Part shown: positions 1,218 to 61,965 of the stretch, piece after piece
Layout: each line of letters opens with the position of its first letter
Position numbering within the stretch: the first letter of the stretch is position 1
Assembly: GCF_003790525.1 (NCBI RefSeq)
Contig: NZ_CP033635.1
Reading direction: 5' to 3' (one strand)
From: Escherichia coli
GTDB lineage: Bacteria > Pseudomonadota > Gammaproteobacteria > Enterobacterales > Enterobacteriaceae
Length of the DNA: 64,000 nucleotides
Translations under genes and position numbers: made by a program
The notes under the pieces: model-generated
Seen by the model: only the letters and a program-made list of their open reading frames with translations
Database searches by the model: none
Told to the model about the DNA's origin: nothing

Positions 1218-2536
1218 TGTGCGCCTCCGGTTGCCCAAATGACGCTACCGGCAAGCCAGGCGCTACAGGGCGTCAGCTGCTGACCATCCCATTCCCCCAT
1301 TAGCATAAACGGCGCGCCGCCGCTGGCCGCCAGTAACCGCCAACCCTCGTCCGACGACAGGTGCGTCGGTAAGTGCTGGCCCTGTGTCGAGACGAATCGC
1401 CAGCCGCTCTCGTGCGGGTAAATCAATATTTCGCTTACTCGCAGCGGCAGAGGCCATTGCCAGGGATTCGCGCTAAGCCGCTGCGCCATGTCATGCAGCG
1501 CGTCCGGGAGGGGTAATTCTGCAAGCGGGAATCTTTCACCGCGGGTAAACGGCTCCACAACCCGCGCCCGTAGCGGTGATGCGCCAGGGAAAAAGGCAAG
1601 CGCGCCCTGGCAGACTTGCCCGGTGATAAAGTGCTGGGGAAAGTTTTTACTACCGTGTGAATAGTCCAGCAGTAGCGCGGTGCGGTGGCTCTTTTCTCCG
1701 TACAGCCAGACCCGGCGTCGCCACAGATTATTCCCTTCTTGCGCGCTTTGACCTAAGACCTGCCAGTTATCGAGGCAGGTTAATCCGTCAGTGACGTCGT
1801 GTTTATCCGGGGGTATTCCCAATGCCGCATGGAGATCGCTAAGTTGTGCCGGGGATAACATTTGTTGCTGGCGCCAGGCGTCAATAATCAGCTGTAGCTG
1901 CCCCAGTTCTTTGCACAGGCTCGATGGCCATACCTCGGCGGTAGTAAAATGAGTGGTCAGATTGTTCAGGCGAGCGGCAATTCCCGGTAGTTGGGCGTCG
2001 ACCATGCGGGCGGCGATCCCGGCAAAAGGCAACTGTTGTGCAGAGATCTGCGCCAGACCGTGGCGGATCAGGTCGTGCATCCACTGTTCGAGGAAATCCA
2101 GCCCCGCCGTCATTTTTTGGTTGCGTGCCGCTTCCCGTTTGGCGGCAGCCTGCGGGTCGGCAGCTTTTGCCTCAGCCTGCTCTTTCTTCTCTTCTTTGCG
2201 AACCGCCCGCTGCTGGCGCGAGGTTAGCCACTCGCTTACCCATTCCGGCGGCTCGCCAGCGGTGAAACTTGCGGTGTGTTGCACCTGGAGAAAAAGCAAC
2301 GCAAGGCTATGTTTACAGGGGAATTTACGGCTGGGGCAGGAACATTTACAGGCCAGATCCTGTCTGTCGATTCGTACCTGATAAGGGCGGGAGCCGCTAC
2401 CTTTACACTCTCCCCAGAAGGCAGCCTCGCTATATCCGAGCGTCGGCCATTTTGCGGGAGCAACCAGGCCACGAGCCGCTTTAACCGAGGCGTCATCGGG
2501 CGCCAGGGCTTGCACTGATTCAACGGTCAGTTCCAT
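1214..2536 (-). CDS. SWIM zinc-finger domain protein, 440 aa, function unknown
   Basis: ORF-track protein carries a CxCxnCxH motif (CKCSCPSRKFPCKHSLALLF) typical of SWIM zinc fingers, followed by a charged linker (RKEEKKEQAEAKAADPQAAAKREAARNQ); no resemblance to GltF; GC-rich. Confidence 0.75.
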   Translation of the reverse strand: MELTVESVQALAPDDASVKAARGLVAPAKWPTLGYSEAAFWGECKGSGSRPYQVRIDRQDLACKCSCPSRKFPCKHSLALLFLQVQHTASFTAGEPPEWVSEWLTSRQQRAVRKEEKKEQAEAKAADPQAAAKREAARNQKMTAGLDFLEQWMHDLIRHGLAQISAQQLPFAGIAARMVDAQLPGIAARLNNLTTHFTTAEVWPSSLCKELGQLQLIIDAWRQQQMLSPAQLSDLHAALGIPPDKHDVTDGLTCLDNWQVLGQSAQEGNNLWRRRVWLYGEKSHRTALLLDYSHGSKNFPQHFITGQVCQGALAFFPGASPLRARVVEPFTRGERFPLAELPLPDALHDMAQRLSANPWQWPLPLRVSEILIYPHESGWRFVSTQGQHLPTHLSSDEGWRLLAASGGAPFMLMGEWDGQQLTPCSAWLAGSVIWATGGAQ

Positions 2537-2649
2537 TACAATTCTCTATTGGCGTGGGGAAATCGATGGGGTCAAGGAGGCGTTAAGCAAAGCAGGAGGA
2601 GACTGTTTTCCGTAACAGCGTATTGCGCGTCCATCGCAAATTTGTAGTG

Positions 2650-2679
2650 AGTATAGCGGGCGGTAAATTCAGGAAACAA
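2650..2679 (-). promoter_or_regulatory. candidate sigma70 promoter for the SWIM operon (-35 TTGTTT, 18-nt spacer, -10 TATACT on minus strand)
   Basis: Hexamers read on the reverse strand about 115 nt upstream of the SWIM start codon; motif match only. Confidence 0.3.
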
Positions 2680-2725
2680 TGGCGGATAGCGGAAAGTGTA
2701 GTTTTTCGGAAAAAGATAACTTTAT

Positions 2726-2758
2726 CCCGTGTAACCCGTTTTAAGCGGGCTACACGGG
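2726..2758 (-). terminator. hairpin immediately 3' of gltD (13-bp stem, one mismatch, 7-nt loop), followed on the transcript by a U-containing stretch
   Basis: Inverted repeat cccgtgtaacccg / cgggctacacggg 11 nt after the gltD stop; the U tract is interrupted. Confidence 0.4.
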
Positions 2759-2768
2759 AGGCTGCAAT

Positions 2769-4199
<1,431 letters not shown>

Positions 4200-58676: not shown

Positions 58677-58768
58677 GCCTTATCCGACATTTCTGCTGCC
58701 TACACAATGCCTGATGCGCTTCGCTTATCAGGAATTGTGTAGGACAGCGTTGCCATCTCGGATAAGGC
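58677..58768. repeat. REP-type nested palindromic element downstream of mtr
   Basis: gccttatccga...tcggataaggc outer arms enclosing cctacacaat-gcctgatgcgcttcgcttatcagg-aattgtgtagg. Confidence 0.7.
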
Positions 58769-58786: not shown

Positions 58787-59794
58787 CTACCCCAATAATT
58801 CTTCCTTCACATCCATCACCAGCTCAAACGAATGCAGGCGCGCCTGGTGGTCGAAAATCTGCCCGTTAACCATAATTTCATCGGCGTCGGTTTCGCGCAG
58901 GATCGACTGCAAGCCATGACGCACTTTCGCTTTATCGCCCACCAGCGACATACTCAGCGCCTGCTGCACACCATACTGTTCGGACGGCGACCAGAACTGA
59001 TCCATATTTTGAATCGGTGGCGGCAGTTGCCCGGTTTCGCCGCGGCGCAGCTTCACAAAGGCTTGCTGCATTGAGGTAAACAGGAATTCGGCATCGCGGT
59101 TGCTGTCGGCGGCGATAATATTGATGCACACCATCGCATACGGTTTCTCCAACCGTGCCGACGGTTTGAAGTTGCTGCGATAAAGATGCAGCGCCTGGAA
59201 CAACATATCCGGCGCGAAGTGTGAGGCAAACGCAAACGGCAGACCAAGCTGCGCCGCCAGTTGCGCGCTGTAAAGGCTGGAGCCTAACAACCACACGGGG
59301 ATTTTCTCGCCATAGCCTGGTACCGGGCGCACATGCGGATTGGGATCGCGGGCGTCAAACCAGTCCACCAGTTCCGCGACATCGCGGGGGAAATTATCAA
59401 TATCGCCGCTCATATGACGACGCAGCGCCATCATGGTTCGCTGATCGCTACCCGGCGCGCGGCCCAGCCCCAAATCGATTCGCCCCGGATAGAGCGTATT
59501 GAGCGTGCCGAATTGTTCGGCGATCACCAACGGTGAGTGGTTAGGCAACATCACGCCGCCAGACCCCAGATGCAGCGTGGTGGTATTCGCCGCCAGATAG
59601 CCAATTAACACCGACGTTGCAGCACTGGCAATACCGGTCATATTGTGGTGTTCTGCCAGCCAGTAGCGATGATAGCCGTGCTTTTCAGCCAGACGGGCGA
59701 GATCGAGAGAGTGGGAGAACGCTTCTCGCGCTGAAGAGCCTTCGGGGATGGGGGCCAGATCGAGTAGCGAAAACGCAATGGTTTTATCAGTCAT
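58787..59794 (-). CDS. yhbW: luciferase-like (FMN-dependent) monooxygenase family protein YhbW
   Basis: 335-aa [54 protein letters not shown]... Confidence 0.9.
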
Positions 59795-59797
59795 AAC

Positions 59798-59868
59798 AGC
59801 TCACTTTGTTACCGATTAATCTTTAATACTGCATTAAAGAGTAGTTAAAGTTGTTAACAAAGTGAGCT
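59798..59868. repeat. nested inverted repeats between the ubiV stop and yhbW start (14-bp outer arms, 8-bp inner arms)
   Basis: agctcactttgtta (59798..59811) vs taacaaagtgagct (59855..59868); inner tctttaat (59820..59827) vs attaaaga (59833..59840). Confidence 0.6.
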
Positions 59869-59874
59869 ATATAC

Positions 59875-60753
59875 TTACGCTTGCAGCTCCAGCCCGGCCA
59901 GCCGCCGCCAGTAGCCGTTACAATCGCTGTTTGCCGTCAACGGCAGTGGTGCAGCGCCATTTTCATTGGCGCGGAAGGCGTCGAGCATTGCGAAAGTGTC
60001 AGTACCCTGCGGTGACAGGCGGACCACATCGACCAGCCCCTGCATGGATGTCAGCTCGTTACCGAGGTTGTAAACGTAGCCGCTCATGGTCTGAATGCCA
60101 TTGAGTACAAACACTTGTTGGTTTTCCTGCGATAGCACGTTGCGCCCGTTCGGATACTTAATGCAGCAGGTTTCACACTCATCTTTCGGGCGGTCTTCCG
60201 AACGCGCGGTAAAGCAGCGGGCGGAGTAGGCCAGCGGCAGATGACCGTAGCTCAGGACTTCCACTTCAAACTGGTTGCGAATGCCCAGCTCATCGCACTG
60301 ATTAAGCAGATTCACCAACCAGTCGCGGGAAAGCTCCACCGGCATACACCAGCGCATCATGCCCTGTTTGAGCAATATTTTCAGCGTCACCGCGTTGTAG
60401 CAGTTCAGCGCGTGCCCGGCGACGAACGGCAGTTTGCGTTCAGCGCACATATTCACCACGCCGAGATCGCTGGCTTCAATCAGAAACTCACCGTTCTCAA
60501 CATAGCGTTTCAGTTCGCCCAGTTCGGAGGATGCCTGCACCAGTGCCAGCGTGGAGAGCACAATCTGCTTGCCACTTCCGGCGAGCGATTTTGCCATCTC
60601 CAGCCAGTCGCCAACTTTGGTTGCCCGGCGTTTGCTACAGACCGCTTCACCAAGATAAATCACGTCGGCGCTGCTGGCGGCGGCCTGCTGATAAAATTCT
60701 TCCAGCGTCTCTTTTGGCCAGTACCACAGCACTGGCCCTAAGGAATATTTCAT
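59875..60753 (-). CDS. ubiV: U32-peptidase-family protein for O2-independent ubiquinone biosynthesis
   Basis: ORF contains MKYSLGPVLWYWPKETLEEFYQQAAASSADVIYLGEAVCSKRR..., 292 aa (formerly yhbV). Confidence 0.88.
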   Translation of the reverse strand: MKYSLGPVLWYWPKETLEEFYQQAAASSADVIYLGEAVCSKRRATKVGDWLEMAKSLAGSGKQIVLSTLALVQASSELGELKRYVENGEFLIEASDLGVVNMCAERKLPFVAGHALNCYNAVTLKILLKQGMMRWCMPVELSRDWLVNLLNQCDELGIRNQFEVEVLSYGHLPLAYSARCFTARSEDRPKDECETCCIKYPNGRNVLSQENQQVFVLNGIQTMSGYVYNLGNELTSMQGLVDVVRLSPQGTDTFAMLDAFRANENGAAPLPLTANSDCNGYWRRLAGLELQA

Positions 60754-60761
60754 TGCTTTTC

Positions 60762-61757
60762 TCACTGCCATTTACGGTGATACGCGCCAAGGGTGGTCTG
60801 CGTGCCTTCGGACATCGACCCGAGCGTCTCCATCCACGCGCTTTGCGGTATGAAGTTTTGCGGATCGGCCTTACAACGGTCGATAGCCTGACGCCAGACT
60901 TTCGCCACCTGGCTGACATACGCCGGGCTACGCTGGCGGCCTTCAATTTTCACCGAAGCAATATTCGCTGCCATTAACTCCGGCAGCAGTTCCAGGGTAT
61001 TGAGACTGGTGGGTTCTTCCAGCGCGTGATAGCGCTCGCCGTCCACCAGATAACGCCCTTTACACAGCGTCGGATAACCTGCGTTTTCGCCGTCCTGATA
61101 ACGGTCGATCAGCACTTCGTTCAGGCGGGATTCCAGCCCCTGCGGCGTTTGTTGCCAGCGCACGAAACGGGCCGGAGAACACGCACCCACAGTGTTGGGC
61201 GACTCACCCGTCAGATACGACGACAGATAGCAACGACCTTCCGACATAATGCACAGGCTGCCGAAAGCAAAGACTTCCAGTGGTACAGGTGTGACCCGTG
61301 CCAGTTGTTTCACCTGATGAATCGACAACACGCGCGGCAGCACCACGCGGGCAACGTCAAAATGGCGATGATAAAAGTTAATCGCCTCTTCATTGGTCGC
61401 CGAAGCCTGCACTGACACATGACGCTCAATATGCGGGTAACGCTCGGCGGCGTACTCCAGCATGGCGAGGTCGGCGAGGATCAGCGCGTCGGCACCCAGC
61501 TGCGCCGCCATATCCACGGCGCGCTGCCAGCGGGCGTAACCGTCCGGATGCGCAAAAGTGTTAATCGCGATGTGAAGTTTGCGGCGATGTTGATGGACAA
61601 AACTCACCGCTTCCTGCAATTTTTTCTCGGTAAAGTTAAGGCCGGCGAAGTGACGGGCATTGGTATCATCTTTTAGCCCGATATAAACAGCATCTGCGCC
61701 GTTTTCGATGGCCGCCTTAAGCGCCGGGAGATTTCCGGCAGGGCAGAGCAGCTCCAT
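60762..61757 (-). CDS. ubiU: U32-peptidase-family protein for O2-independent ubiquinone biosynthesis
   Basis: ORF contains MELLCPAGNLPALKAAIENGADAVYIGLKDDTNARHF..., 331 aa (formerly yhbU). Confidence 0.88.
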   Translation of the reverse strand: MELLCPAGNLPALKAAIENGADAVYIGLKDDTNARHFAGLNFTEKKLQEAVSFVHQHRRKLHIAINTFAHPDGYARWQRAVDMAAQLGADALILADLAMLEYAAERYPHIERHVSVQASATNEEAINFYHRHFDVARVVLPRVLSIHQVKQLARVTPVPLEVFAFGSLCIMSEGRCYLSSYLTGESPNTVGACSPARFVRWQQTPQGLESRLNEVLIDRYQDGENAGYPTLCKGRYLVDGERYHALEEPTSLNTLELLPELMAANIASVKIEGRQRSPAYVSQVAKVWRQAIDRCKADPQNFIPQSAWMETLGSMSEGTQTTLGAYHRKWQ

Positions 61758-61965
61758 AATTTTTCCTGAAGGTTGCGCTATCAAAGCGCAAAAATGTTAA
61801 CGAACTGGGATTTTAGTTAACCTTGCTGCGACAATTTTTGATTTAAGGCAGTTAAAGTTGTATTGGTGGTAGCAGCAATTTCATATGGAATTGTTGATTT
61901 ATACCGCTATGTTATTTTTCTGATATGGCAAAATAGGATGATTGTTGAAACAGGGAGTAAAACTC

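Follow-up and report, generated by a model that had tools for sequence, protein, structure and literature searches.

The 80-nt spacer between ubiV and yhbW of Escherichia coli is filled with a palindrome that is genuine, non-random and conserved across enterobacteria. Under the explanation that we favour, and to which we give about an even chance of being correct, this palindrome represents the promoter and leader of yhbW combined with fold-back masking of the yhbW start on ubiUV read-through RNA; the transcription start site (TSS), the binding to the arm, the read-through and the selection for complementarity are the parts of it that we infer. The upstream arm would be, or would overlap, a marbox bound by MarA, SoxS or Rob (RamA in Klebsiella) in a class II-like manner, the inner palindrome would provide the −10 region, and the downstream arm would form the translation-initiation region of yhbW. 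Since the activator-site block is the reverse complement of the block at the start region, an RNA arriving from upstream would carry both arms and fold with about −28 kcal/mol. The hairpin formed on ubiUV read-through RNA would then bury the ribosome-binding region of yhbW, while the stress-induced mRNA of yhbW itself would start between the arms, without the upstream arm, and would be translatable. As an outcome, synthesis of an O2-dependent flavin monooxygenase would be uncoupled from the anaerobic transcription of ubiUV. Likely side effects would be Rho-dependent polarity on the untranslated read-through RNA and shielding of the ubiUV 3' end by the hairpin.

The genes of this locus are all on the minus strand (Table 1), so that positions 59855-59868 form the 5' arm of the mRNA and positions 59798-59811 lie just before the start codon of yhbW. 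In the mRNA sense, 6 nt separate the ubiV stop from the upstream arm, and 3 nt lie between the downstream arm and the yhbW AUG. The whole spacer reads TAA-GTATAT-AGCTCACTTTGTTA-ACAACTTTAACTAC-TCTTTAAT-GCAGT-ATTAAAGA-TTAATCGG-TAACAAAGTGAGCT-GTT-ATG, in which AGCTCACTTTGTTA and TAACAAAGTGAGCT are the outer arms and TCTTTAAT and ATTAAAGA the inner arms. The preliminary description of this DNA had proposed 14-bp outer arms and an 8-bp inner hairpin within an 80-bp spacer, and this layout was borne out by the coordinates: the outer arms, AGCTCACTTTGTTA (59798-59811) and TAACAAAGTGAGCT (59855-59868), are complementary at 14 of 14 positions and stand 43 nt apart, and the inner arms (59820-59827 and 59833-59840) pair over 8 bp, extended to 9 bp in the computed fold. 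The RNA folding proposed there as a check gave a stable composite hairpin, with −28.4 kcal/mol for the sense strand and −27.5 for the antisense strand (z about −5.2), and none of 200 shuffled sequences folded equally well.

Table 1. Positions of the genes, palindrome arms, conserved blocks and predicted regulatory features around the ubiV-yhbW spacer
Feature	Sequence	Position	Strand	Remark
ubiU		60762-61784	minus	
ubiV ORF		59875-60771	minus	stop TAA at 59875-59877; RefSeq annotation of identical E. coli DNA; same layout in K-12
yhbW ORF		58787-59794	minus	start ATG at 59792-59794; RefSeq annotation of identical E. coli DNA
Upstream (5', mRNA sense) arm	AGCUCACUUUGUUA	59855-59868	minus	core of marbox-like block; kept in all Enterobacteriaceae sampled
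Downstream (3', mRNA sense) arm	UAACAAAGUGAGCU	59798-59811	minus	covers weak SD-like GUGA and ribosome docking region
Inner hairpin, upstream arm	UCUUUAAU	59833-59840	minus	
Inner hairpin, downstream arm	AUUAAAGA	59820-59827	minus	
Candidate 20-bp marbox	ATAGCTCACTTTGTTAACAA	59851-59870	minus	forward relative to yhbW; PWM match
Marbox-like 15-mer	GCTCACTTTGTTAAC	59853-59867	minus	within candidate marbox
Upstream arm plus 4 nt				mean majority fraction 0.94 (14 collinear species)
Next 12 nt (spacer)				mean majority fraction 0.58 (14 collinear species)
Block 2	TTTAATGCAGTATTAAA	59822-59838	minus	mean majority fraction 0.95 (14 collinear species)
Last 17 nt before ATG				mean majority fraction 0.85 (14 collinear species)
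Predicted yhbW transcription start zone		59812-59823	minus	inferred from −10 candidates

Within the window, by which we mean the whole 64-kb stretch of DNA analysed, no perfect inverted repeat with separated arms of 14 nt or more was found besides the palindrome, and the arm sequence did not recur. The Rfam scan of the spacer returned only sub-threshold matches to miRNA-like hairpins (25 bits against a gathering score of 56), and a scan of the spacer for consensus promoters and terminators detected none. On the other side of yhbW, the convergent gap between the yhbW stop and mtr (58677-58768) contains nested imperfect REP/BIME-like palindromes, GCCTTATCCGACAT / ATCTCGGATAAGGC and CCTACACAATGCCTGAT / ATCAGGAATTGTGTAGG.

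Among 5423 complete E. coli genomes, 4460 carried the 71-nt element at 100% identity and 962 with 1-3 SNPs, and it was single-copy in this set (median 1 place per genome). Six sampled E. coli variants had their SNPs away from the outer arms: T50C was seen four times, and the others were G56A and T29C. For comparison between species, sequences upstream of yhbW orthologues were collected from three sources: a genome scan at species level, contigs that encode YhbW homologues, and a scan of metagenomes with a K. pneumoniae primer. Both arms were identified in E. albertii, Citrobacter, Superficieibacter, Salmonella, Enterobacter, Klebsiella pneumoniae, Cronobacter, Franconibacter and Atlantibacter as well as in Pluralibacter, Entomohabitans, Buttiauxella and Mangrovibacter, with a degraded form in Tenebrionibacter, and the element keeps the same locus beside yhbW in the Enterobacteriaceae examined. 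In the more distant Providencia, Brenneria and Erwinia, only the ATG-adjacent block AACAA(A)GTGAG is retained, without a recognisable upstream arm; the core of the downstream arm, AAAGTGAG, is invariant and is retained even in these three genera. At the same position before the yhbW ATG, Acerihabitans arboris has an inverted repeat of different sequence, TAATACTCATAGTTATCA / TGACTGTGAGTTAACC (about 2430-2500 of its locus, −18.5 kcal/mol), which hints that the pairing as such may be what is kept.

Alignment of 14 collinear species revealed three conserved blocks, the upstream arm, TTTAATGCAGTATTAAA (block 2) and the downstream arm, separated by sequence that drifts (Table 1). The distance from TTGTTAAC to GCAGTAT is constant at 20 nt in about 14 species even though the sequence between them varies. 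Judged from the alignment, this pattern probably marks an activator site, followed by a −10 and then a start region. An insert of about 65 nt, conserved and structured, separates block 2 from the downstream arm in Klebsiella, Cronobacter, Franconibacter, Atlantibacter, Entomohabitans and two Enterobacter species; the arms remain complementary across it. The insert takes the form ACAGC...CTGGC-variable hairpin-GCCAG...GGCTGGAAGAAGACCTTCAATCTGATGAC...GCTGT (about 1085-1185 in one locus and 2410-2480 in another) and has no Rfam match; a scan of the insert-bearing Franconibacter locus likewise gave chance hairpin matches only. It may be an undescribed 5'-UTR element that is absent from E. coli.

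Several insertions and rearrangements were observed at or near the element. An ERIC element of about 125 bp with ATGTAAGCTCCTGGGGATTCAC (455-579 of the E. coli E189 locus) abuts the upstream arm exactly at its 5' edge; it was present in about 9 of 30 sampled E. coli genomes, strain M19 and isolate 602 among them, and also in E. albertii, and it leaves the palindrome intact. Salmonella enterica has a REP-like palindromic insert between the ubiV stop and the upstream arm (about 1020-1125 of its locus), showing again that the 5' boundary of the element tolerates insertions. In E. coli M19 (NZ_CP010221.1), an IS110-family insertion sequence is located inside the start-side arm (taacaaag|agaatgag; about 1847-3100 of the locus) and the N-terminus of yhbW is missing; in this strain, nature has provided a knockout of the element. 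Isolate 602 of E. coli (NZ_OW968111.1, locus 61-137) has in place of the 3' half an exact reverse complement of its 5' half, generating a perfect 77-nt palindrome, which looks like a template-switch event (quasi-palindrome correction) or possibly an assembly artefact.

The upstream arm resembles a marbox and is a candidate site for MarA, SoxS, Rob or RamA. With a PWM derived from the 33 sites that Sharma et al. (PMC5684230) obtained by ChIP-seq of MarA, the upstream arm scored 8.5 bits, ranking 54th among the 127,972 positions of the window and above 6 of the 33 training sites. In the arm, a T replaces the A of GCAC that almost every site shows, and this keeps its score at a moderate level only. 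Compared with the consensus AYnGCACnnWnnRYYAAAYn, ATAGCTCACTTTGTTAACAA differs by this T and at positions 18-19, where C and A stand for A and Y. The same GCTC variant is present in two bound Salmonella sites, lpxC GCTCTTTGTGCTAAA and fpr GCTCTAACTAACAAA (PMC10268841), and between genera the arm varies in two columns, which correspond to 'n' and 'W' in the marbox consensus. yhbW is one of the genes of the mar/sox/rob regulon. YhbW is up 77-fold in response to vanillin, alongside SoxS-regulon proteins (PMC6561319), yhbW is down-regulated in rob mutants (PMC7653855), and purified RamA bound the yhbW promoter fragment of K. pneumoniae in an EMSA and raised its transcription 6.9-fold in vitro (PMC4310594). 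After reconstruction from the published primers on metagenomic K. pneumoniae contigs, this fragment proved to be 261 bp long and to include only 40 bp upstream of the arm CGCTCACTTTGTTAAC. The arm was the top marbox-like PWM match both in this fragment and in the homologous fragment of E. coli.

ChIP-seq of MarA in ETEC gave no peak in the spacer, the nearest site being about 700 bp upstream inside ubiV, and the Salmonella table covering MarA, SoxS, Rob and RamA (PMC10268841) has no yhbW peak; both site lists are short and condition-dependent. The MarA ChIP-seq site of ETEC H10407 designated '(yhbV)' corresponds, with one mismatch, to GCACAATCTGCTTGC at 60558-60572 (+) inside ubiV, and as a site of the spacer it was ruled out by this position. 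Searching the literature for the arm sequence turned up nothing but a deletion primer that contains it.

Block 2 contains the candidate −10 hexamers CAGTAT (59826-59831) and TATTAA (59823-59828), and the inner palindrome coincides with this conserved −10 block. Further weak −10 candidates are located within 6 nt beyond CAGTAT. Several sigma-70 pairings of −10 and −35 were tried across species, and none was convincing in all of them; the −10 of yhbW is poor and ambiguous and was placed from conservation. Every candidate would put the transcription start between the arms, at about the zone given in Table 1. In these respects yhbW resembles marbox promoters of class II in the mar/sox/rob regulon (among them micF, fpr, fumC and sodA), which were reportedly described by Martin et al. 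in 1999. The features that yhbW would share with them are a forward marbox-like 20-mer situated 18-19 bp upstream of a weak −10, in yhbW a candidate one, and the lack of a good −35: by our measurement, ATAGCTCACTTTGTTAACAA ends 19 bp before CAGTAT, and the forward 20-mer of micF ends 18 bp before its −10 TAGAAT. In addition to this likeness to the 18-bp gap of micF, yhbW is also a member of the regulon, and its fragment is activated by RamA in vitro. As differences, RE1 of yhbW has GCTC for GCAC, as do lpxC and fpr of Salmonella, the ChIP studies list no peak within the spacer, and the candidate marbox is reverse-complementary to the start region of its own gene, which is not a described feature of marbox promoters.

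The 3' arm of the inverted repeat covers the ribosome-binding region of yhbW, and the predicted accessibility of this region depends on where the RNA begins. Freeing the segment from −13 to +8 around the AUG was calculated to cost 19-20 kcal/mol when both arms are present and about 6 kcal/mol for RNAs starting in the predicted TSS zone. The outer stem was part of the minimum-energy fold in 17 of 18 species, over arm-to-arm distances of 43 to about 115 nt. Fnr activates ubiUV as an anaerobic operon (PMC10470549), and no terminator was predicted between ubiV and yhbW by the scan. Because both arms are contained in read-through RNA, yhbW would be translationally silent on it, if such RNA exists, and being untranslated it would be a natural target for Rho. 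Within the downstream arm, the SD-like GUGA is weak and the pairing with the 16S tail is no better than random, ruling out a canonical Shine-Dalgarno sequence as the cause of the conservation of the 3' arm. Given this weak SD, and given that conservation reaches taxa without the upstream arm, the conservation of the downstream arm is not fully explained.

Fold-back inhibition of transposase translation on read-through transcripts has reportedly been described for IS10 and IS50 (Davis, Simons and Kleckner, 1985; Schulz and Reznikoff, 1991). Shared with yhbW are the inverted repeat, the downstream arm lying over the ribosome-binding region and a promoter of its own, in yhbW a predicted one, between the arms, so that only transcripts from outside carry both arms and would be silenced; for yhbW this likeness is a computed one (about 20 versus 6 kcal/mol). 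The differences are that yhbW is a chromosomal housekeeping or stress gene and not a transposase gene, that its upstream arm is probably an activator site as well, and that the TSS position and the differential translation are predicted here from the DNA.

As to whether the pairing is under selection, the evidence is suggestive only. The preliminary description had put forward conservation of the arms in related genomes as a check. The arms proved to be strongly conserved across genera, while covariation is weak because the arms hardly vary. In the alignment of arms from 16 distinct sequences, 89.3% of the cells pair in the sense and 86.6% in the antisense; five pairs never vary, two pairs show double changes, and the observed pairing was reached by 37 of 500 column shuffles, so that covariation in this alignment is not significant. 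All six distinct internal transitions still pair in the sense RNA, five of them by changing to G.U and one by compensation (Mangrovibacter, GCUCGC/GCGAGC). Internal G.U cells number 10 in the sense and 0 in the antisense, where the equivalents are C.A mismatches. Like these transitions, the alternation of the outermost arm pair between A-U and G-C speaks for pairing in the RNA. Speaking against it, the terminal pair is often mismatched, transversions disrupt pairs in the three taxa that diverge most, and arms can be homogenised neutrally through template switching at palindromes (compare E. coli isolate 602).

The symmetry of the arms may also be read at the level of DNA only, the two arms being inverted sites for one protein and the RNA hairpin being incidental. 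The protein could be MarA, SoxS or Rob bound as monomers, with the downstream copy acting in repression or as a decoy, or it could be some symmetric regulator. This reading, which we consider unlikely, draws on the presence of the same marbox-like sequence in both arms (the antisense copy reaching 3.8-3.9 bits in E. coli and, in K. pneumoniae, 5.6), on antisense pairing that almost equals sense pairing, and on the mirror-symmetric conservation of the arms. MarA-family proteins bind asymmetric sites as monomers. An arm spacing that ranges from 43 to about 115 nt between genera without helical phasing is odd for cooperative or looping sites; moreover, the downstream copy is a weak marbox located downstream of any plausible TSS, and internal substitutions are G.U-tolerant on the sense strand only. 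That the complementarity is functionless, an ancient quasi-palindrome kept by intrastrand template switching with each arm conserved for a reason of its own, is quite improbable in our estimate. The conversion in isolate 602 shows that such events take place here, and the covariation shuffles are not significant; against this, the complementarity survives divergence at the family level and an insertion of 65 nt, and Acerihabitans has a repeat of different sequence at the same position. However the hairpin arose, it would hide the yhbW start on read-through RNA all the same.

The remaining alternatives assign the hairpin to the end of the ubiUV transcript or to mobile DNA. Like REP elements and stem-loops without a terminator, the hairpin could block 3' exonucleases after Rho-dependent or distal termination and in this way act as 3'-end stabiliser or processing site of ubiUV mRNA. 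This role is compatible with promoter and masking and may exist beside them; as the explanation of the palindrome it is rather unlikely. It agrees with the location of a strong hairpin 6 nt past the ubiV stop and with the lack of an intrinsic terminator for ubiUV, but an aerobic Term-seq study has no 3' end near ubiV or yhbW among the entries listed, and neither the fixed spacing of the −10 block nor the 3' arm abutting the yhbW ATG is accounted for. Since an ERIC (about 30% of sampled E. coli) or the Salmonella REP-like element can intervene between the ubiV stop and the arm, a stabiliser at this exact position is not required. This reading is the RNA processing or stability element suggested in the preliminary description. 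An unusual terminator or attenuator halting ubiUV transcription before yhbW is very improbable. Its resemblance to an intrinsic terminator consists in a stable hairpin directly after the stop codon; the differences are the missing U-tract (the stem is followed by GUUAUGACUG), a long AT-rich stem of 14-16 bp with 5 G-C pairs, and a large, branched interior of 43 nt with the nested hairpin, while the scan gave 0 sites and Rfam chance matches only. The preliminary description was therefore right in not regarding it as a standard intrinsic terminator. Least probable of all is the remnant of a miniature mobile element: it would fit the 14-bp terminal inverted repeats around a 71-bp body and the ERIC and IS110-family insertions at or in the element, but the sequence is single-copy in 5423 E. 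coli genomes, has no other copy in the window and occupies the same locus in the Enterobacteriaceae examined. With no further copies of the arm or the element found, a REP- or MITE-type repeat was ruled out. Like REP/BIME and ERIC sequences, the element is an intergenic palindrome that can fold into an RNA hairpin past a stop codon and might shield the 3' end of the upstream mRNA; it differs from them in being single-copy and locus-specific and in sharing no consensus with them, the true ERIC being a separate, polymorphic neighbour insertion.

The favoured combination of yhbW promoter, leader and fold-back masking is an arrangement built from known kinds of parts. The preliminary description had proposed a protein-binding site or an RNA element between ubiUV and yhbW; it was right that the palindrome could be either or both, and what it missed is the probable role as promoter and leader. 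Among the possible RNA roles, masking of the yhbW start on read-through RNA has the best support. In its full form, a stretch of 14-16 nt would be used twice, as a marbox in DNA and as an anti-start sequence in RNA, so that only self-initiated transcripts would be translated and anaerobic, Fnr-driven read-through from ubiUV would never yield the O2-requiring monooxygenase, with conservation across the Enterobacteriaceae being maintained partly via template switching; this extended version is tentative and, on present balance, doubtful.

Without the masking model, the locus would be an ordinary one, consisting of a promoter, a leader and a hairpin, and even so a candidate marbox and a TSS zone are supplied for yhbW, a strongly inducible and functionally uncharacterised gene. 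If the masking model is true, RNA-seq read-through into yhbW need not mean synthesis of YhbW. The logic involved has so far been described mainly for IS elements, and the ubiV-yhbW spacer would then represent a clean chromosomal case of translational insulation, without a terminator, between adjacent and oppositely regulated units, the anaerobic ubiUV and the oxidative-stress gene yhbW.
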